This document shows positions 6,388 to 13,839 of a stretch of DNA of 18,174 nucleotides, piece by piece. This DNA is from an uncultured bacterium (GTDB taxonomy: Bacteria > Acidobacteriota > Holophagae > Holophagales > Holophagaceae). The stretch's first letter is position 1; each line of letters begins with the position of its first letter. The stretch covers positions 1 to 18,174 of the forward strand of contig CAXYVC010000048.1 in NCBI GenBank assembly GCA_964292295.1, in the 5' to 3' direction. The translations under genes and the position numbers were made by a program. The notes under the pieces were generated by a model that worked only from the letters and a program-made list of their open reading frames with translations, was not told where the DNA came from and did no database searches.

Positions 6388-7701
6388 ATGAACCGGAAGC
6401 TGAAGGTCGGTCTGGCGATCCTGGGCGGCGTGGCGGCCTTGCTGGTGGCGGCTCACCTCGTGGAGAACTTGCGGGGCAGGCACGCCTGGCGCAGCTGGAA
6501 GCGGGCCCGCCTGGCCGCCGGGGACCGCTTCGAACCGGCCGCCTTCGCCCCGCCCGCCCTGCCGGAGGCCGACAACTTCGCGGCCGCACCCCTGATCGCC
6601 GAGACCGTGCAGGGGCGGCGCCCCGGGCCCCAGGTCCCCTCCGCGCTCGGCGAACCCCGCCTGATGGGCAGCTGGCGCGAGGGACGAAGGTCCGACCTCG
6701 CGGCCCTGAAAGATACGCTGAAGGTGCAGGACCTGGACGCCTTCCTGGCGCCCTACGGGGTCGAGCTGGAGGCCCTGGCCGAGGCGGCTCGGCGCCCGGG
6801 CTGCCGCCTGCCCGTGGACTACGGCGCGCCCATGGCGGTTCCTCCCCAGTGGCTGGGCATGCGCGCCCGGGCGCGGCTCCTGGCCCTGCGGGCCCTCGTG
6901 CGCCTGGAGCAGGGGAAGTCGGAAGCCGCCCTGGAGGACGTGCTCACGGGCCTTCGCGTGGCTGGTCGCCTCCAGCGGGAGCCCCACCTCATCACCCAGC
7001 TCCTGCGCCTGGCCTGGGCGAACATCCTGTTGCAGCCCGTGTGGGAGGGGCTGGAGGCGCGGTGCTGGAGCGCCTCCCAGCTGGAGCGCCTCCAGGCGGC
7101 CCTGGAGAGGGTGGATCTCGTCGCCTCCTGGCGCCAGGCCGTCCTGTACGAAGGCTGCGGAAGCGTGTCCAGCTTCGAGGCGGTGGTCGAGAAGAACGCC
7201 ATCCTGCGGGGCTGGGCCTACCAGAACCTGGTGCGCATGGGCGGCTGGTGGTACCAGAACGCGGAGGTCATGGATTCGGTGCGGCACCGCTTCCGTCCCG
7301 AGGCCGAGGAACCCCTGAGGCGCATGCTCCTGGCCAGGAGGACGCCCTACACCTTCATGCTCGAATCCTTGCCCGCCATGTTGGGCCAGAACCAGCGCAT
7401 GGCCCGCACCCAGTCGGGGCTGGACCAGGCCCGCGTGGCCTGTGCCCTGGAGCGCTTCCGCCTGGCGAAGGGCTCCTATCCCGAGCGCCTGGAGGCGCTG
7501 GTACCGGGCTTCCTTCCCGAGGCGCCGGGCGACGTGATCGAGGGCCAGGCCCTTTGCTACACGCGCTTCCGTCCCGACGCCTTCCGGCTCTATTCCCCGG
7601 GGTGGAACCGCCAGGATGAGGGCGGGCGCTTGGTCCTTGAGGCGGGGGGCAGGAGCGATCCGGGCAGGGGCGACTGGCCCTGGACGGGGTCTCAGAGGTA
7701 G
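6388..7701 (+). CDS. Hypothetical signal-anchored (N-terminal TM) protein, likely exported domain; family not recognised
   Basis: MNRKLKVGLAILGGVAALLVAAHLV is a charged n-region followed by a hydrophobic helix. SD GGAGGG lies 8 nt upstream of ATG 6388. An alternative ATG at 6352 is also preceded by GGAAGGGG. It lies immediately downstream of the sigma/anti-sigma pair. Stop TAG 7699-7701 overlaps the 3' end of the convergent NlpC/P60 gene by 10 nt. Confidence 0.5.
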   Translation: MNRKLKVGLAILGGVAALLVAAHLVENLRGRHAWRSWKRARLAAGDRFEPAAFAPPALPEADNFAAAPLIAETVQGRRPGPQVPSALGEPRLMGSWREGRRSDLAALKDTLKVQDLDAFLAPYGVELEALAEAARRPGCRLPVDYGAPMAVPPQWLGMRARARLLALRALVRLEQGKSEAALEDVLTGLRVAGRLQREPHLITQLLRLAWANILLQPVWEGLEARCWSASQLERLQAALERVDLVASWRQAVLYEGCGSVSSFEAVVEKNAILRGWAYQNLVRMGGWWYQNAEVMDSVRHRFRPEAEEPLRRMLLARRTPYTFMLESLPAMLGQNQRMARTQSGLDQARVACALERFRLAKGSYPERLEALVPGFLPEAPGDVIEGQALCYTRFRPDAFRLYSPGWNRQDEGGRLVLEAGGRSDPGRGDWPWTGSQR

Positions 7702-8456
7702 CTGCGGGCGCCTAAGTACCGTTCCCGGAAGTAGGAGCTGTCCAGGGATTCCTCCCGGATGGTGCTGCCCTGGCGGGAGGCGTGCACGAAGCGGCCGCCT
7801 CCCGCGTAGAGGCCCACGTGGCTCACCTGGCCCTTGGCGCCGGTGGCGAAGAAGAGCAGGTCGCCCTTCTGGAGTCTGGCGCGCTCCACGGGGTGGCCCT
7901 GCTCCCACTGTTCCCGGGAGCTGCGGGGGATCCGGAGGCCGTCCAGGCGGTACACGGCCCAGACGAGGCCGCTGCAGTCGAAGCCGTCCCCGTTGGTGCC
8001 CCCCCACAGGTAGGGCACGCCCAGGAAGCTGCGGGCGCGCGCCACCAGGCGCTCCCGCAGCTCCGGGACCTTCCCGGGTTCGAGGGCGATGGGCTCGGGC
8101 GCCACGAGGTAGTAGACCTCCAGAACGCCTTCCCTCCGCAGGGCCTCGGCGCGGCGCCTGGCGGATTCCCGGTCCGGAAAGTCGCCGAAGCGCACCTTGT
8201 AGAGGCCGTCGGGCGCGGCGAAGTAGGTGGCGTCCAGGCCCAGATCCTGGAGGCGCGCGCTGAGGCGCGCGGCGTTCTCGACCCGGGCGAAGGCGCCGGC
8301 CTGGATCGTGGTGCCCAGGGCGCGGGCGGGGCGTTCCGAGGCCTGCGCGGGGACGGGGCGCCGCGGCGGGGCGGCGGGAGCGGGTCGCGGAGGCCGGCAG
8401 GCGGGGAGGGAGAGCAGCAGGCCCGCGACGAGGGCCAGGGCAACGCGCGGCCTCAC
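7692..8456 (-). CDS. NlpC/P60-family cell-wall peptidase lipoprotein with N-terminal SPOR domain
   Basis: GTG start at 8456 preceded by GAGGAGGG. Signal peptide plus a possible lipobox MRPRVALALVAGLLLSLPAC. SPOR-like segment IQAGAFARVENAARLSARLQ...YKVRFGDF. NlpC/P60 catalytic triad context GFDCSGLVWAVY (Cys), VSHVGLYAGGG (His), RFVHASRQG (His). The start overlaps the kinase stop (GTGA). The long track ORF 7692..9779 is the same frame read through without a stop; its upstream part is Arg/Pro-rich nonsense. Confidence 0.75.
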   Translation of the reverse strand: MRPRVALALVAGLLLSLPACRPPRPAPAAPPRRPVPAQASERPARALGTTIQAGAFARVENAARLSARLQDLGLDATYFAAPDGLYKVRFGDFPDRESARRRAEALRREGVLEVYYLVAPEPIALEPGKVPELRERLVARARSFLGVPYLWGGTNGDGFDCSGLVWAVYRLDGLRIPRSSREQWEQGHPVERARLQKGDLLFFATGAKGQVSHVGLYAGGGRFVHASRQGSTIREESLDSSYFRERYLGARSYL

Positions 8457-9751
8457 GCGCCCTCCTCGGGCAGGGGCTGGGGCAGCTCGAAGGTGAACTC
8501 GGCCCACTCCCCTGGGCGGGAACGGGCATCCATGCGGCCCCCGTGGAGGAGCACGATGCGCCAGGAGGTGTAGAGGCCCACGCCCGTGCCCTTGATCCGG
8601 GCCAGCTCGGGGCTCTGCAGGCGGCTGAACTTGCGGAAGAGGCGGCCGCGCTGCTCGGGGGGGAAGCCGGGGCCCTCGTTCCAGACCGCCACGCGGACGA
8701 GGTTCGGCTCGTGCCCATAGTGGAGGCGGATCAGCCCGCCCTCGCGGCCGTACTTCACGGCGTTGCCCAGCAGGTTCACCGTCACGATCTTCAGCAGGGC
8801 GGGATCGCAGCGGAGCGCTTCCGGCCGCTCCGGGTAGTGGCGCTCCACGCGCATGCCCCGCTCGGCGATCTGGGGCTGCACCAGCTCCAGGGCGGGCTCG
8901 AGCACCTCCTCCACGAGCATGGACTCCGTGGCCGCGAGGCGCAGCCTTCCGCCCTCCATGCGGGCGAGGTCGAGGTACTCGCGCACCAGGTCCAGCAGGT
9001 AGCTGCCCTTCTGGATGAGGCGCTCCAGCTTCTGCACGTGGCGCGGGTCCAGCTCCCCCAGGTAGCCGCCCGTGAGCACCCGCGCGTCGGTGATCATGCT
9101 GGCGATGGGGTTCTTCAGCTCGTGGCTCACGAAGGCGAGCATCTCGTTGTAGGCCTGGTTGGCGGCAGTGAGCTGCTCGATGCGCCAGACCTTCTCGACC
9201 GCCTGGCTCAGGCGCTCGGCCAGGGCGCGCCACAGGCGGACGTGGTAGGGCGTGTAGACCCGTTCGTCCCGCGAGCTGAGGAAGAGCAGGCCATAGGGGC
9301 GCTGCTCCACCATGAGGGGGCAGGCCATGCTGGAGCGCACGCCCTCCCGCACCAGCAGGCGGGTGGAGGCGCTGCGGGGGTGCTCCGCCTCGTAGCGCGC
9401 CAGGTCGTAGATGATGCGGCTGCAGCCGCTGGCGAGCACCGTCTGCAGGGAGCTGCCCGCGAGGTCCTCCGCGTAGCCGTCCTTCAGCAGCACTTCCGGG
9501 TACAGGGCCCGGGTGCGCCGGGAGACCACGCGCCGCCCGTTCTCCTCCACGAAGGCCAGGCCGATGCGGTCGCAGGGGTAGAGCGCCCGCAGGTTGCCGA
9601 AGAGCCAGTCCAGCAGCTCGTCCAGGGACTCCTTGGCGCTGACCTTGCGGTTCACCGTGTCGAGGATCTCCTGCTCCTCCGCCGGGAAGACCTCTTCCTC
9701 GGCGCCTTCGAAGGTGCTCAGGAAATGGAGGTTGGCGTGGAGGTCGACCAT
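8453..9751 (-). CDS. Soluble sensor histidine kinase with N-terminal GAF domain (GAF-HisKA-HATPase_c), no TM segments
   Basis: 432 aa from ATG 9751. H-box FVSHELKNPIASM, N-box NLLGNAVKYG, G1 VWNEGPGF, G2 GTGVGLY. The N-terminal 170 aa is GAF-like (…LYPCDRIGLAFVEENGRR…MACPLMVEQRPYGLLFLSS…). The SD is weak. The 8453..11548 track ORF is this frame extended upstream without a stop. Confidence 0.8.
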   Translation of the reverse strand: MVDLHANLHFLSTFEGAEEEVFPAEEQEILDTVNRKVSAKESLDELLDWLFGNLRALYPCDRIGLAFVEENGRRVVSRRTRALYPEVLLKDGYAEDLAGSSLQTVLASGCSRIIYDLARYEAEHPRSASTRLLVREGVRSSMACPLMVEQRPYGLLFLSSRDERVYTPYHVRLWRALAERLSQAVEKVWRIEQLTAANQAYNEMLAFVSHELKNPIASMITDARVLTGGYLGELDPRHVQKLERLIQKGSYLLDLVREYLDLARMEGGRLRLAATESMLVEEVLEPALELVQPQIAERGMRVERHYPERPEALRCDPALLKIVTVNLLGNAVKYGREGGLIRLHYGHEPNLVRVAVWNEGPGFPPEQRGRLFRKFSRLQSPELARIKGTGVGLYTSWRIVLLHGGRMDARSRPGEWAEFTFELPQPLPEEGA

Positions 9752-9775
9752 GGCGGGGTCCGCACGGCCATTCTC

Positions 9776-9800
9776 CCACGGGCCGGCGGGAGCCGGCCCG
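9776..9800 (-). other. Very stable GC hairpin (9-bp stem CGGGCCGGC/GCCGGCCCG, 4-nt loop) in the 65-nt hydA-kinase intercistronic gap; no U-tract
   Basis: Plus strand reads cgggccggc-ggga-gccggcccg. It lies 17-41 nt past the hydA stop codon (TAG, minus strand) and is followed on the minus strand by gugggagaauggccgug rather than a U-run. Confidence 0.4.
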
Positions 9801-9816: not shown

Positions 9817-11742
9817 CTACTCGATGTATTTCCCCCGGGGCGTGTAGTGCGTGTGCAGCAGGGCGTGGCTCTTCGCGCCGCAGGGGCCCTCGGTCAGGAA
9901 GTCCTCGTACAGCTTCAGCAGGGCGGGATTCTCGTGGGACTTCCGCACCGCGTACGCACGGTCCTCCTCGTAGATGGCGCGGGCGCGCGCCTCCCGGATG
10001 GCGGGGCTGGTGGGGATCGGCTGCCCGCCGCCGCCGATGCAGCCGCCGGGGCAGCCCATGAACTCGATGAAGTGGCACTTGGAGAGCTCGCCACCGCGTC
10101 GGATGTCCTCCATCACCTTCTTGGCGTTGGCGGTGCCGTGGGCCACCGCCACCTTCAGGGTGTGCCCCTTCAGGAAGCGCCAGTGGGGGAAGAGGTGCGC
10201 CAGCATGGGGGGCACCTCTCCCACCTCCTGGATGGGGAGCTCCAGGTAGCGCACGCCATCGAATCCGCGCAGGGGCTTGATTTCCGCGTGCTCGAAGAGG
10301 TTCTCCACCTTCACGCCGCACACCAGCTCCACGACCGTGCGCAGGGCCGCCTCCATCACGCCGCCGGTGGCGCCGAAGATCACGCCCGACCCCGTGGCCG
10401 TTCCGAAGGGGGCGTCGAAGTCGCTCTTCGGAAGCATCGGGAGCTCCAGGCCGGCCTCGCTGATCATCTTCGCCAGTTCCCGGGTGGTGAGGCCGTAGTC
10501 CACGTCCTTGAAGCCGCTGGCGGCCATCTCGGAGCGGTTGCACTCGAACTTCTTGGCCGAGCAGGGCATGAGGGCCACCGTCACGATGTCCTTCGGGTCG
10601 ATCCCGTGCTTCTCGGCGTAGTACGTCTTGATCACCGCGCCGAACATCTGCTGGGGGCTCTTGGCGGTGCTCAGGTTCGGGATGTATTCGGGGTAGAAGT
10701 GCTCCAGGTATTTCACCCACCCCGGCGAGCAGGAGGTGAACTGGGGGAAGGCGGCGCCGGGCTCCCGCAGCAGCAGCGCCTTCTTGAGGCGCAGCAGCAG
10801 TTCGGTGCCCTCCTCCAGGATCGTGAGGTCCGCCGAGAAGTTGGTGTCGAAGACCCGGTCGAAGCCGCACATGCGCAGCGCCGTGTTCAGCTCGAAGGTG
10901 AGGGCTCGGCCCGGCGCGAGGCCGAAGCATTCGCCGATGGCGGCCCGCGGGCTGGGGGCGGTCTGGATCACCACGTGCTTGGCGGGGTCGTCGATGGCGG
11001 CCCACACCTCGTCCGTGGGGTCGTTGGCGCGCAGGGCGCCCGTGGGGCAGCGGTTGATGCACTGCCCGCAGTTGATGCACACCACGCTGCCCAGGGGCTT
11101 CTCCAGGAAGGTGCCGATGTGGCTCCTGGCGCCCCGCTCGATCACCTCGATGGTGCCGACCTCCTGGAGGTCGATGCAGGTGCGCACGCAGCGGCGGCAG
11201 AGGATGCACTTGTTGTTGTCCCGCACCACGCTGGTGCTGGATGCGTCGATCTCGTGGACGGGCTGGCTCTGGTGGCCGAAGCGGAAGAAGTCGACGCCGT
11301 ATTCCCTGGCGAGGGACTGGAGCTCGCAGGTGCCGTTGCGCCCGCAGGCGTAGCAGTCGCCCACGTGCTCGGAGAGGAGCAGGTCCAGGATGTGGCGCCG
11401 CGCCCGGCGCACCCGTTCGGTGTGCGTGCGCACCTTGATGGGGGCGGTGACGGGGTAGGCGCAGGCGGCCTGGAGGGTGCGCTGGCCCTCGATCTCCACG
11501 GAGCAGATGCGGCAGACGCCCGCCACGCAAAGGTCCGGGTGGTGGCATAGGGTGGGGATCCGCACGCCCACGCGGGCGGCGGCCTCCAGGATGGTGGTGC
11601 CCAAGGGCACCTTCACCTCCGTCCCGTTGATGGAGATGCCCACCTGGCCGCCGATGGCCTGGGGGCGGTCGGGCGGCGGCACCACCTGGGCCTGCTGGCT
11701 GGCGGGGGCGCGGCGGGATGCAGTCGTGGTCTGGTCGGACAT
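9817..11742 (-). CDS. hydA: [FeFe]-hydrogenase catalytic subunit HydA (M3-type: 2Fe-2S, His-ligated 4Fe-4S, 2x 4Fe-4S ferredoxin-like, H-cluster domain)
   Basis: 641 aa from ATG 11742, with GGAG 6 nt upstream. 2Fe-2S motif CHHPDLCVAGVCRIC. His-ligated cluster motif HVGDCYACGRNGTC. Ferredoxin-like motifs CILCRRCVRTC and CINCGQCINRCP. H-cluster motifs L1 FTSCSPGW (variant), L2 MPCSAKKFE, L3 EFMGCPGGCIGGGGQP. Confidence 0.9.
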   Translation of the reverse strand: MSDQTTTASRRAPASQQAQVVPPPDRPQAIGGQVGISINGTEVKVPLGTTILEAAARVGVRIPTLCHHPDLCVAGVCRICSVEIEGQRTLQAACAYPVTAPIKVRTHTERVRRARRHILDLLLSEHVGDCYACGRNGTCELQSLAREYGVDFFRFGHQSQPVHEIDASSTSVVRDNNKCILCRRCVRTCIDLQEVGTIEVIERGARSHIGTFLEKPLGSVVCINCGQCINRCPTGALRANDPTDEVWAAIDDPAKHVVIQTAPSPRAAIGECFGLAPGRALTFELNTALRMCGFDRVFDTNFSADLTILEEGTELLLRLKKALLLREPGAAFPQFTSCSPGWVKYLEHFYPEYIPNLSTAKSPQQMFGAVIKTYYAEKHGIDPKDIVTVALMPCSAKKFECNRSEMAASGFKDVDYGLTTRELAKMISEAGLELPMLPKSDFDAPFGTATGSGVIFGATGGVMEAALRTVVELVCGVKVENLFEHAEIKPLRGFDGVRYLELPIQEVGEVPPMLAHLFPHWRFLKGHTLKVAVAHGTANAKKVMEDIRRGGELSKCHFIEFMGCPGGCIGGGGQPIPTSPAIREARARAIYEEDRAYAVRKSHENPALLKLYEDFLTEGPCGAKSHALLHTHYTPRGKYIE

Positions 11743-11762: not shown

Positions 11763-12938
11763 TCAGGCGTGGGTGAACTGGCGGCCCATGATCTCGTCGC
11801 GGAAGTGCTTCACGACGGAGAGGAAGGCGTTGGGGCTGCTCTGGCCGAGCCCGCACTTGGAGGCGATCTGCATGGTCTCCCCCAGGGCGCACAGCTCGTT
11901 CAGGTGGGCCATGGAACAGGTGCCCTCCTGGAGGCGCCGCACGCCCTCCAGGAGCTTCGGGTTGCCGCAGCGGCAGGGGGTGCACTGGCCGCAGCTCTCG
12001 TCCACGAAGAAGGCGAGGAAGTTCTCCAGCACCCGCAGCATGTCGCGCTGGGGCCCGAAGACGATCACGCTGCCGCCGGTGGGGATGTCCTCGAAGGCCA
12101 GGGTGCGCCCGAATTCCGCGGCGGGAACGCACTGCCCCGAGGCGCCGCCGATCTGGACGGCCTTGGCCCCCGTGCCGCCCACCTGCGCGAGCAGTTCGTG
12201 GACGGTGATGCCCAGGGGGAGCTCGTAGACGCCGGGGCGCTCGCAGTCGCCGGAGACGCTGAAGAGCTTCGGGCCCGTGCTCTTCTCGGTGCCCTTGGAG
12301 CGGAACCAGGCCGCGCCCTTGGCCAGGATGCAGGCGGCCGAGGCGAGGGTCTCCACGTTGTTCACCACCGTGGGGTGCCCCAGGAAGCCGGTGTTCACGG
12401 GGAAGGGGGGCCGGTTGCGCGGTTCGCCCCGGAAGCCCTCCAGGCACTCGATGAGGGCGGTCTCCTCGCCGCAGATGTAGGCGCCGGCGCCCGTGAAGAC
12501 CCGGATGTCGAAGTCCAGGTCGCTGCCCAGGATCTCGCGCCCCAGCAGCTTCTGCTCCCGGCGGCGCGCCAGCACTTCCAGGAGGTGGGGCTTCAGGTAG
12601 GTGTACTCGCCGCGCAGGAAGAGGATGCCCTCCTTGGCGCCGATGGCCCTTCCCGCGAGGGTCATGCCCTCGAAGACGAGGTCCGCGTGCTCCTGGAGGA
12701 TCACCCGGTCCTTGAAGGTGCCGGGCTCACCCTCGTCGGCGTTGCAGACCACGAACTTGCGGCTGGACTTGGCGGCCGCCGCGAAGTTCCACTTCACGCC
12801 CGTGGGGAAGCCCGCGCCGCCGCGGCCCTTGAGGCCGGAGGCGCCGATCTCGGCGATGATGTCGGGGCGGGGCAGGGACAGGGCCCTGCGCAGGCCCTCT
12901 TCCGGAACCATGGAGGCAAAGGTCGGGACGGGGCTCAT
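11763..12938 (-). CDS. hydB: NADH-binding flavoprotein subunit HydB (NuoF/51-kDa-like), compact form
   Basis: 391 aa from ATG 12938, with AGGAGG 10 nt upstream. NuoF motifs GASGLKGRGGAGFPTGVKW (FMN/NADH site) and ESCGQCTPCRCG...KCGLGQ (N3 4Fe-4S). There are no additional CxxCxxCxxxCP ferredoxin motifs and no N-terminal thioredoxin-like 2Fe-2S domain. ATGA overlap with hydC. Confidence 0.85.
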   Translation of the reverse strand: MSPVPTFASMVPEEGLRRALSLPRPDIIAEIGASGLKGRGGAGFPTGVKWNFAAAAKSSRKFVVCNADEGEPGTFKDRVILQEHADLVFEGMTLAGRAIGAKEGILFLRGEYTYLKPHLLEVLARRREQKLLGREILGSDLDFDIRVFTGAGAYICGEETALIECLEGFRGEPRNRPPFPVNTGFLGHPTVVNNVETLASAACILAKGAAWFRSKGTEKSTGPKLFSVSGDCERPGVYELPLGITVHELLAQVGGTGAKAVQIGGASGQCVPAAEFGRTLAFEDIPTGGSVIVFGPQRDMLRVLENFLAFFVDESCGQCTPCRCGNPKLLEGVRRLQEGTCSMAHLNELCALGETMQIASKCGLGQSSPNAFLSVVKHFRDEIMGRQFTHA

Positions 12939-13456
12939 GCGAGGTGGACCTCCTTCCTCTCGGTGGCGTGGACGCCGAAGACCTTGCGGCAGTCCTCGAG
13001 GATCGCGTGCACCTGTTCCGGCGTGACGCGGGTGAAGACCCGCTCGTTCACCAGGAGCGCCGGCCCCTGGTCGCACATGCCCATGCAGTTCGCCCACTCC
13101 AGGGTGAACTTGCCGTCCTTCGTGGTCTCGCCGAAGGCGATGCCCAGGTCGTTCTCCAGCTGGCGGGCCCCGCGGTCCTTCCCCTGCATGTCGCAGGAGA
13201 TGGTGCGGCAGAGGCGGATCACGAAGCGGCCCTGGGCGCGCTCCCCCAGGAATGCATAGAAGGAGGCGACGCTGTGCACCTCCACGGGGTGGATGCCCAG
13301 CTCGTCGGCCACCACCTGGAGGGCGTAGGCGTCGAGCCGGTGGTACGTGCGCTTCACCTCCTGGAGGATGGTCAGCAGGGCGCTGCGGTCGCAGCCGAAG
13401 CGCTCGGCCAGCGCCTTGACCTCCCGAACCAGGCGTTCCCGTTCGGTCATCAGCAT
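12935..13456 (-). CDS. hydC: Thioredoxin-like [2Fe-2S] subunit HydC (NuoE/24-kDa-like)
   Basis: 173 aa from ATG 13456, with GGGAGG 7 nt upstream. NuoE Cys pattern RLCRTISC...WANCMGMCDQGPAL (Cx4C...Cx3C). Stop TGA overlaps the hydB ATG. Confidence 0.85.
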   Translation of the reverse strand: MLMTERERLVREVKALAERFGCDRSALLTILQEVKRTYHRLDAYALQVVADELGIHPVEVHSVASFYAFLGERAQGRFVIRLCRTISCDMQGKDRGARQLENDLGIAFGETTKDGKFTLEWANCMGMCDQGPALLVNERVFTRVTPEQVHAILEDCRKVFGVHATERKEVHLA

Positions 13457-13458
13457 GG

Positions 13459-13839
13459 CTAGGCCTCCCGGCGCGCCAGCAGGCGCGCCACCTTCGCCAC
13501 GAGCACGTCGGGCTCCACGGGCTTGGGCACGAAATCGTCCACGGGCACCATCTCGTCGTCCGGGCCGAAGGCGAGGCCTGAGGCGGTGGCGACGCTGGTG
13601 AGCATGAGGATCGGCAGTTTCAGGCCCTTCCGGCGCAGCTCCTGGGCCATGGTGAAGCCGTCGTCCGGCTGCTCCATCATCACGTCCAGGATCAGCAGGT
13701 CCGGCTGGAAGCGCTCCACCATCCGGAGGCCTTCCTGGCGGCTTCCCGCGGAGGCCACCTCGTGGCCCTCCTTCTGGAGGAAGAGCTGGCTGGCTTCCAC
13801 GATGTCGGGGTCGTCGTCGACGATGAGGACCTTGGCCAT
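13459..13839 (-). CDS. Stand-alone response-regulator receiver domain protein (CheY-like, no output domain)
   Basis: 126 aa from ATG 13839, with GGAG 6 nt upstream. MAKVLIVDDDPDIVEA (acid pocket), DLLILDVMMEQPDDGF (phospho-acceptor Asp), LMLTS (Thr), FVPKPV (Lys). The stop lies 2 nt before the hydC ATG. The track ORF extends it to 14109, but that N-terminus is low-complexity. Confidence 0.8.
   Translation of the reverse strand: MAKVLIVDDDPDIVEASQLFLQKEGHEVASAGSRQEGLRMVERFQPDLLILDVMMEQPDDGFTMAQELRRKGLKLPILMLTSVATASGLAFGPDDEMVPVDDFVPKPVEPDVLVAKVARLLARREA

Follow-up and report, generated by a model that had tools for sequence, protein, structure and literature searches.

A short HydB subunit points to a ferredoxin-independent, NAD(H)-linked [FeFe] hydrogenase in a Holophagaceae-like acidobacterial locus

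Does the hydC-hydB-hydA gene set carried by an 18-kb stretch of a Holophagaceae-like Acidobacteriota genome (contig CAXYVC010000048.1, 18,174 nucleotides, 72% GC; hereafter, the window) encode a bifurcating hydrogenase that engages ferredoxin, or an enzyme that links NAD(H) to H2 directly? The question converges on hydB, located on the minus strand at 11763..12938 and coding for a NuoF-like NAD(H)/FMN subunit of 391 amino acids (aa), from which a reading of the letters alone (hereafter, the sequence-only reading) had predicted that NADH is coupled to H2 without ferredoxin. As a prediction, this is upheld by the domain content of HydB, by four out of four residue signatures, by the bootstrap values of a phylogeny, by a sample of 150 database representatives, and by the conservation of the operon. 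By analogy with Syntrophomonas wolfei Hyd1ABC and Syntrophus aciditrophicus HydAB, hydC-hydB-hydA quite probably encode a trimeric, non-bifurcating, ferredoxin-independent NAD(H)-linked [FeFe] hydrogenase with a linear electron path.

The rationale for looking at HydB comes from the characterized enzymes. In the HydABC complexes of Thermotoga maritima, Acetobacterium woodii, and T. kivui, the C-terminal two-cluster domain of HydB is the proposed ferredoxin docking or exit branch (Katsyv 2023, PMC10021017), and the HydB clusters that are missing from the S. wolfei enzyme have been given as the reason for its non-bifurcation (Schut 2022; Zheng & Huang 2024). The sequence-only reading had taken this loss of beta-subunit clusters as the distinguishing feature, a view that agrees with the latter two studies but needs to be qualified in the light of Losey 2020 (PMC7311640), according to which bifurcating enzymes do carry additional iron-sulfur (Fe-S) domains, but counting clusters does not by itself suffice for a reliable diagnosis.

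Domain content and boundaries of HydB

The hydB gene reads from ATG to TGA on the minus strand (12938..11763; 391 aa plus the stop), and its product matches Complex1_51K PF01512 (aa 32-200), SLBB PF10531/PF22461 (aa 226-266), and NADH_4Fe-4S PF10589 (aa 303-383), with no other Pfam domain. The glycine-rich FMN/NADH loop GRGGAGFPTG is read directly from the sequence at aa 38-47 (12798..12827, minus strand). The only Fe-S site is an N3-type [4Fe-4S] cluster, whose ligands, assigned from the PF10589 match and the list of the 13 cysteines of the protein, are C316, C319, and C322, within the motif ESCGQCTPCRCG at aa 314-325, and C362 as the fourth (11853..11993, minus strand); the C-terminus follows 29 residues past this last ligand. 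Coordinates, length, and both motifs are as the sequence-only reading had described them.

Neither of the two additional Fe-S domains of the bifurcating enzymes is found in HydB by Pfam. Specifically, no N-terminal thioredoxin-like [2Fe-2S] domain is detected, Complex1_51K beginning at residue 32, and no Fer4 match reveals a ferredoxin-like domain with two [4Fe-4S] clusters at the C-terminus. The 626-aa T. maritima HydB served as a positive control, in which the scan recovers two Fer4 domains and a partial 2Fe-2S_thioredx domain (PF01257, residues 21-111), while the 407-aa HydB of Syntrophothermus lipocalidus displays a three-domain architecture identical to that of the window HydB. Moreover, a six-frame regular-expression scan of the whole window finds no CxxCxxCxxxC motif outside hydA. 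The absence of the ferredoxin motif pair and of the thioredoxin-like domain, which the sequence-only reading had reported and for which it had proposed a Pfam comparison, is thereby confirmed.

The gene junctions bear on the same point. The stop of hydC and the start of hydB share a 4-bp ATGA overlap, and 20 nt separate the hydB stop from the hydA ATG, which is preceded by GGAG 8 nt on its 5' side; therefore, there is no space for a hidden N- or C-terminal extension of HydB. Likewise, since no ferredoxin motif occurs in any frame outside hydA and the junctions are tight, a ferredoxin domain hidden by a frameshift is excluded. A far-upstream start and a concealed extension, two of the circumstances that the sequence-only reading had named as able to overturn it, are thus both set aside. 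Identification of HydB as the NuoF subunit of complex I was also considered and rejected on the basis of the scores of TIGR01959 (394.9 versus a cutoff of 558.65) and NF010120 (324 versus 389) and of the neighbouring hydC and hydA genes.

Residue signatures and relatives of HydB

Beyond cluster content, Losey 2020 (PMC7311640) offers residue criteria, in the numbering of T. maritima HydB (TmHydB), that set the two classes apart. Bifurcating enzymes carry A or E at position 232, M at 234, F at the FMN site (F312), and GGPSG at 427-431, whereas non-bifurcating ones carry T or S at 232, K, S, or A at 234, Y at the FMN site, and a different sequence at 427-431. The A and M residues are also given as Bfu-specific by Schut 2022, and the criteria have been employed in a 2026 study of an anaerobic fungus. 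The window HydB was aligned by MAFFT with TmHydB and five short beta subunits transcribed from the PMC7311640 supplementary alignment, whose lengths (626, 418, 408, 402, 417, and 407 aa) agree with the table of that paper, and with the core segments, already aligned, of A. woodii HydB and Hydrogenophilus thermoluteolus HoxF.

In this alignment, T74-F75-K76 (12711..12719, minus strand) corresponds to TmHydB 232-234 and supplies the non-bifurcating T and K, Y154 in GAGAYICGEE (12477..12479, minus strand) corresponds to F312 and supplies the non-bifurcating Y, and GGASG at aa 264-268 (12135..12149, minus strand) occupies the position of GGPSG. All four residue signatures are of the non-bifurcating type and the bifurcating A/M/F and GGPSG signature is absent; therefore, the prediction is strengthened beyond what domain loss can provide. 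According to PMC7311640, GGASG also occurs in Ignavibacterium, Selenomonas, Dehalobacter, and Mahella, in subunits predicted to be non-bifurcating. In the same paper, the diagnostic FMN-site Phe/Tyr is placed at TmHydB position 367 in the main text and at about 312 in the supplement; in our alignment, it is F312 in GAGAFVCGEE, and position 367 is a valine. Lastly, the glycine-rich loop reads GGAGF in the window HydB, in the short, predicted non-bifurcating HydBs examined, and in H. thermoluteolus HoxF, and GGGGF in T. maritima HydB, A. woodii HydB, and the long HydB of Mesoterricola sediminis described below, a difference that does not hold across the 150 representatives.

The short architecture is shared by the family. 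The best 120 database homologues of HydB (73-98% identity) measure 361-403 aa, with one exception of 564 aa, and Fer4 is found in none of them (0/120); those with a name belong mostly to Mesoterricola, Geothrix, and Holophaga/Holophagaceae, apart from one that bears the label Firmicutes, and it is from these homologues that the window is attributed to a Holophagaceae-like acidobacterium. The 564-aa protein (P0110) is a Holophagaceae-like HydC-HydB fusion (PF01257 + PF01512 + PF10589), arranged like the NuoE-NuoF fusions of the HoxF type, and may be genuine or may result from read-through where the two genes overlap in ATGA. At a greater distance, a HMMER search of 1.84 billion representatives was used to take the 150 nearest representatives of 50%-identity clusters, of which 97 are scorable: the C-terminal ferredoxin motif is present in 0/58 of the representatives with T/K/Y, as opposed to 21/27 of those with A/M/F. 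No A/M/F protein ranks above the 25th place among the 150, and the ten highest-ranked full-length representatives scanned are short (390-417 aa) or are HoxF-type NuoE-NuoF fusions of about 600 aa, again with no Fer4 (0/10). Consistently, in a neighbor-joining (NJ) tree of 11 taxa, built on a 347-column core alignment with 200 bootstraps, the HydBs of T. maritima and A. woodii and the long HydB of M. sediminis form a clade that leaves out the window HydB in 200/200 bootstraps.

The operon is conserved as well. The arrangement hydC (173 aa)-hydB (391/393 aa)-hydA (640 aa) is repeated in M. sediminis, whose genome is complete, and on a contig of Geothrix, and short HydB relatives with 54-59% identity are also flanked by hydC and an [FeFe] hydA. 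A receiver gene heads the set, as it does in the window, both in M. sediminis (L001, 9084-13115) and in a metagenomic relative whose HydB is 59% identical (L003, 5132-8641), and is not present upstream of hydC in the Geothrix locus (L002). Neither in the window nor in any of four related loci does an extra Fe-S gene lie in or beside the operon.

About 6 kb from its minimal hydCBA, M. sediminis (AP027081.1; L001, 1-6590) carries a second trimeric [FeFe] operon, composed of a rex-like gene, hydC (159 aa), a gene for a 1080-aa HydB, and hydA (573 aa), with hydG and a TM1266-like gene nearby. This long HydB is fused to a GltD-like NAD(P)H/FAD module and bears the full bifurcating signature A/M/F/GGPSG. 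Judging from these genes, the Holophagaceae lineage can apparently carry both hydrogenase types side by side, and the presence of both in one relative suggests a division of labour and not an obligate dependence on an H2 scavenger.

Comparison with known systems places the window enzyme among the non-bifurcating ones, with features of its own. The S. wolfei Hyd1ABC (Losey 2017) is represented here by proxy, namely by the S. lipocalidus HydB, which matches the length and signature of the HydB of S. wolfei subsp. methylbutyratica in Table S3. Like this type, the window enzyme has separate HydA, HydB, and HydC subunits and a HydB made of Complex1_51K, SLBB, and NADH_4Fe-4S, with T/K/Y and no GGPSG; it differs from the proxy in a core identity of about 45%, in HydB length (391 versus 407 aa), and in GGASG in place of GGTSG, and from S. 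wolfei Hyd1ABC in its host, an acidobacterium and not a Firmicutes syntroph, and in the receiver gene upstream. The S. aciditrophicus HydAB (PMC7311640) is an experimentally ferredoxin-independent, NADH-linked [FeFe] enzyme and the source of the residue criteria that place the window HydB; it is described as a dimer, whereas hydC is a separate gene here. As to the entries of Table S1 of Losey 2020, the predicted non-bifurcating beta subunits (402-434 aa), including the Dehalococcoides HymB, share T/K/Y and, in several cases, GGASG with the window HydB, which is shorter than any of them.

The bifurcating HydABC enzymes (T. maritima 7P5H, A. woodii 7Q4V, T. kivui 8A6T) have in common with the window enzyme the three-subunit plan and a HydB core of 43-45% identity, but the window HydB lacks their N-terminal [2Fe-2S] and C-terminal 2x[4Fe-4S] clusters and shows T/K/Y/GGASG instead of A/M/F/GGPSG. 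The best match in the Protein Data Bank (PDB) is HoxF (5xf9_A, 355 bits), as compared with 329 bits for A. woodii HydB and 311 bits for T. maritima HydB. This HoxF, from the NAD+-reducing soluble [NiFe] hydrogenase of H. thermoluteolus (5XF9), resembles the window HydB in its core (48% identity), in T/K/Y, in the single N3 cluster, and in having no ferredoxin domain; unlike it, HoxF has a fused NuoE-like N-terminus, which in the window corresponds to the separate HydC, and partners HoxU and the [NiFe] HoxHY, whereas the window HydB partners an [FeFe] HydA. Despite the best PDB match, HydB was for this latter reason not assigned as the HoxF of a group 3d [NiFe] hydrogenase.

Predicted mechanism, direction of H2 metabolism, and alternatives

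In the proposed mechanism, HydB would bind NAD(H) and FMN and hold one N3-type [4Fe-4S] cluster, through which electrons would travel singly from FMN to the HydA chain, made of a [2Fe-2S], a His-ligated [4Fe-4S], and two [4Fe-4S] clusters, and on to the H-cluster, or along the reverse route, while the [2Fe-2S] of HydC would lie next to the flavin, as N1a does in complex I. HydB has neither the C-terminal two-cluster domain nor the N-terminal [2Fe-2S]; therefore, it should offer electrons no second route and ferredoxin no place to bind, and NADH + H+ and NAD+ + H2 would be interconverted directly. We infer NAD rather than NADP as the cofactor, and likewise the physiological direction; determinants of the NAD versus NADP choice were sought in Katsyv 2023 (PMC10021017), which yielded nothing usable.

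The enzyme would be bidirectional in vivo, producing H2 from NADH only when H2 is at pascal levels, and taking up H2 to form NADH whenever it is available, for instance to feed respiration. Reduction of NAD+ by H2 is exergonic under standard conditions, so that the uptake direction runs downhill, and Dehalococcoides, in which enzymes of the same predicted class occur, is an obligate H2 oxidiser. PMC7311640 lists this class in Dehalococcoides, Selenomonas, Ignavibacterium, and Dehalobacter. The statement of the sequence-only reading that H2 formation from NADH is favourable only at very low H2 is right as far as evolution is concerned, the S. aciditrophicus HydAB having reached only 2.2-40.2 Pa H2. 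Conversely, the syntrophic or H2-scavenged lifestyle that it had drawn from this statement is not borne out, given that the class is also found in non-syntrophs, that the nearest structural relative makes NADH by oxidising H2, that iron reduction and fermentation are what the related genera are known for (Mesoterricola and Geothrix being iron reducers), and that M. sediminis has a second operon.

On these grounds, a main role in H2 uptake is a serious candidate, which we would place somewhat short of an even chance: the enzyme would be an NAD+-reducing [FeFe] hydrogenase in which HydCB works as a HoxEF-like diaphorase that feeds NADH to respiration. This alternative opposes the inference of a syntrophic lifestyle and not the non-bifurcating mechanism. 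Besides the thermodynamics and the occurrence of the class, as HymB, in Dehalococcoides, it draws on the best PDB match, which is the HoxF of an H2-oxidising, NAD+-reducing enzyme, on the many HoxF-type NuoE-NuoF fusions among the nearest representatives, on the name given by JGI to the Holophagaceae homologues ('[NiFe] hydrogenase diaphorase moiety large subunit'), and on the iron-reducing habit of the named relatives Mesoterricola and Geothrix. Against it, the two enzymes that have been characterized, from S. wolfei and S. aciditrophicus, are taken to produce H2 (PMC7311640), and the hydrogenases of Holophaga metagenome-assembled genomes are read as fermentative and H2-evolving (PMC9599518). 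A literature search for H2 use by Holophagaceae, Geothrix, and Mesoterricola found no data other than generic 'group A3/B/C' assignments.

A more speculative and rather doubtful extension is that Holophagaceae run a 'two-gear' H2 metabolism, in which a HoxEF-like module joined to an [FeFe] HydA would act as a receiver-controlled enzyme for NAD+-reducing uptake or for venting at low H2 partial pressure, beside a bifurcating-type, GltD-fused hydrogenase. If this were true, iron-reducing Acidobacteriota would feed H2 electrons to NADH and respiration by [FeFe], and not only [NiFe], enzymes.

Some observations weigh against the non-bifurcating mechanism. A partner that interacts with ferredoxin may be encoded outside the 18-kb window. 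The core identity of the window HydB is similar towards bifurcating and non-bifurcating references (42-48%). Moreover, the sequences predicted to be non-bifurcating do not form a single clade in the 11-taxon NJ tree, in which the Syntrophothermus HydB adjoins the bifurcating clade; therefore, the argument relies on signatures and domains and not on the position among the non-bifurcating sequences, and, of the phylogenetic placement that the sequence-only reading had proposed, the separation from the bifurcating clade stands while a common non-bifurcating group does not emerge. Lastly, the GGPSG criterion is leaky, as it occurs in 12/58 of the T/K/Y representatives with no ferredoxin motif. The proteins in question are mostly about 600 aa long and are read as HoxF-like NuoE-NuoF fusions, an architecture confirmed by Pfam in three of them. 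From this sample, GGPSG appears to be less specific for bifurcation than the T/K/Y versus A/M/F residues.

It could accordingly be supposed that the enzyme still bifurcates, by means of an Fe-S subunit encoded elsewhere or of an unrecognised site, and that a short HydB is not predictive of function, all the more as the window displays 18 kb of the genome and the arrangements of subunits and domains are highly variable in this family (PMC7311640). This is highly improbable: there is no extra Fe-S gene in or next to the operon, either here or in the four related loci, the A, M, and F residues of the flavin site that are conserved in bifurcating enzymes are replaced here by the T, K, and Y of the complex I/Hox type, and enzymes of the S. 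wolfei/S. aciditrophicus type have been found experimentally not to bifurcate. That the short HydB is a truncation or frameshift artefact of annotation or assembly, derived from a normal bifurcating HydB of about 600 aa, is an idea that high-GC DNA, with its many overlapping open reading frames, and the 564-aa homologue might encourage, but it is already refuted by the more than 100 independent homologues of similar length (381-403 aa), including those of complete Mesoterricola and Geothrix genomes, by the ATGA overlap and the 20-nt gap that leave no space, and by the lack of a ferredoxin motif in any frame, the 564-aa fusion gaining the HydC domain only and no Fer4.

The class to which we assign the non-bifurcating window enzyme, represented by S. 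wolfei Hyd1ABC, S. aciditrophicus HydAB, and 24 predicted homologues, is already published together with its diagnostic criteria. What is new is modest, namely the lineage, the HoxF-like affinity of HydB, and the conserved upstream receiver gene: the accessible portions of the Losey 2020 (PMC7311640) supplements hold no Holophaga or Geothrix entry, and the word 'Acidobacteria' is absent from its main text. The locus would thus add a phylum to a known class and no new mechanism. Its relevance lies in the way such enzymes are catalogued, since surveys commonly file all trimeric [FeFe] hydrogenases as 'group A3 bifurcating, H2-evolving', the Holophaga hydrogenases are filed generically as group A3 (PMC9599518), and the NCBI model for HydA names bifurcating and non-bifurcating enzymes alike. 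A HydB of the non-bifurcating type in the widespread hydCBA of Holophagaceae changes the predicted energetics, in that ferredoxin would not be coupled, H2 would be evolved only where it is at pascal levels, and its uptake to form NADH would be possible, which is relevant to models of the abundant Acidobacteriota of soil, peat, and sediment.

HydA, HydC, and neighbouring genes

The hydrogenase genes belong to a four-gene unit on the minus strand, in the order receiver, hydC, hydB, and hydA. HydC (12935..13456, minus strand; 173 aa) is a NuoE-like subunit (PF01257, E 5e-42) with one thioredoxin-like [2Fe-2S] cluster, whose ligands are C83, C88, C124, and C128. HydA (9817..11742, minus strand; 641 aa) is the [FeFe] hydrogenase catalytic subunit according to its Pfam, PDB, and NCBIfam matches. 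Specifically, its Pfam domains (Fer2_4, NADH-G_4Fe-4S_3, Fer4_Nqo3/Fer4_7, Fe_hyd_lg_C, and Fe_hyd_SSU) account for a [2Fe-2S], a His-ligated [4Fe-4S], two [4Fe-4S] clusters, the H-cluster domain, and a small-subunit-like tail, and the two CxxCxxCxxxC motifs found in it by the six-frame scan (11044..11208, minus strand) are the only ones in the window. Its best PDB match, and closest relative among the bifurcating complexes, is A. woodii HydA1 (579 bits). NCBIfam NF040763 is matched with a score of 784.8 (cutoff 765), and its label, 'NADH-dependent [FeFe] hydrogenase, group A6', was discarded as a discriminator, given that the bifurcating A. woodii HydA1 passes with a higher score.

The P1 motif of HydA, assigned by alignment, reads T-S-C338-S339-P at aa 336-340 (10723..10737, minus strand), so that TSCSP replaces TSCCP and the [4Fe-4S]H subcluster has Ser339 in place of a Cys ligand. 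The active A. woodii HydA1 carries this substitution too, as Ser301 (Katsyv 2023, PMC10021017), and TSCSP is thus a known natural variant, common to HydA and to the closest solved HydA. When compared with A. woodii HydA1, T. kivui HydA1, and CpI, HydA also displays an insertion of about 23 residues, QEVGEVPPMLAHLFPHWRFLKGH, at aa 505-527 (10162-10230, minus strand), and a low-complexity N-terminal extension of 33 residues at aa 1-33 (11644-11742, minus strand). Both are probably conserved, because HydA is 640 aa long in Mesoterricola and Geothrix.

The receiver gene (13459..13839, minus strand; 126 aa), which matches only Response_reg in Pfam (E 4e-22), ends 2 nt before the hydC ATG and is probably the first gene of the operon. 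Its product is a stand-alone, CheY-like receiver with no output domain, and its position upstream of hydC suggests phosphorelay control of the hydrogenase; no kinase gene for it is visible within the window. A consensus scan for promoters and terminators between 9500 and 14200 gave no match and is uninformative at 72% GC. On the other side of the unit, a gene for a SPOR and NlpC/P60 cell-wall hydrolase (7692-9779, minus strand; 695 aa) begins 37 nt beyond the end of hydA, in the same orientation, and is probably unrelated to the hydrogenase, because hydCBA has different neighbours in Mesoterricola and Geothrix.

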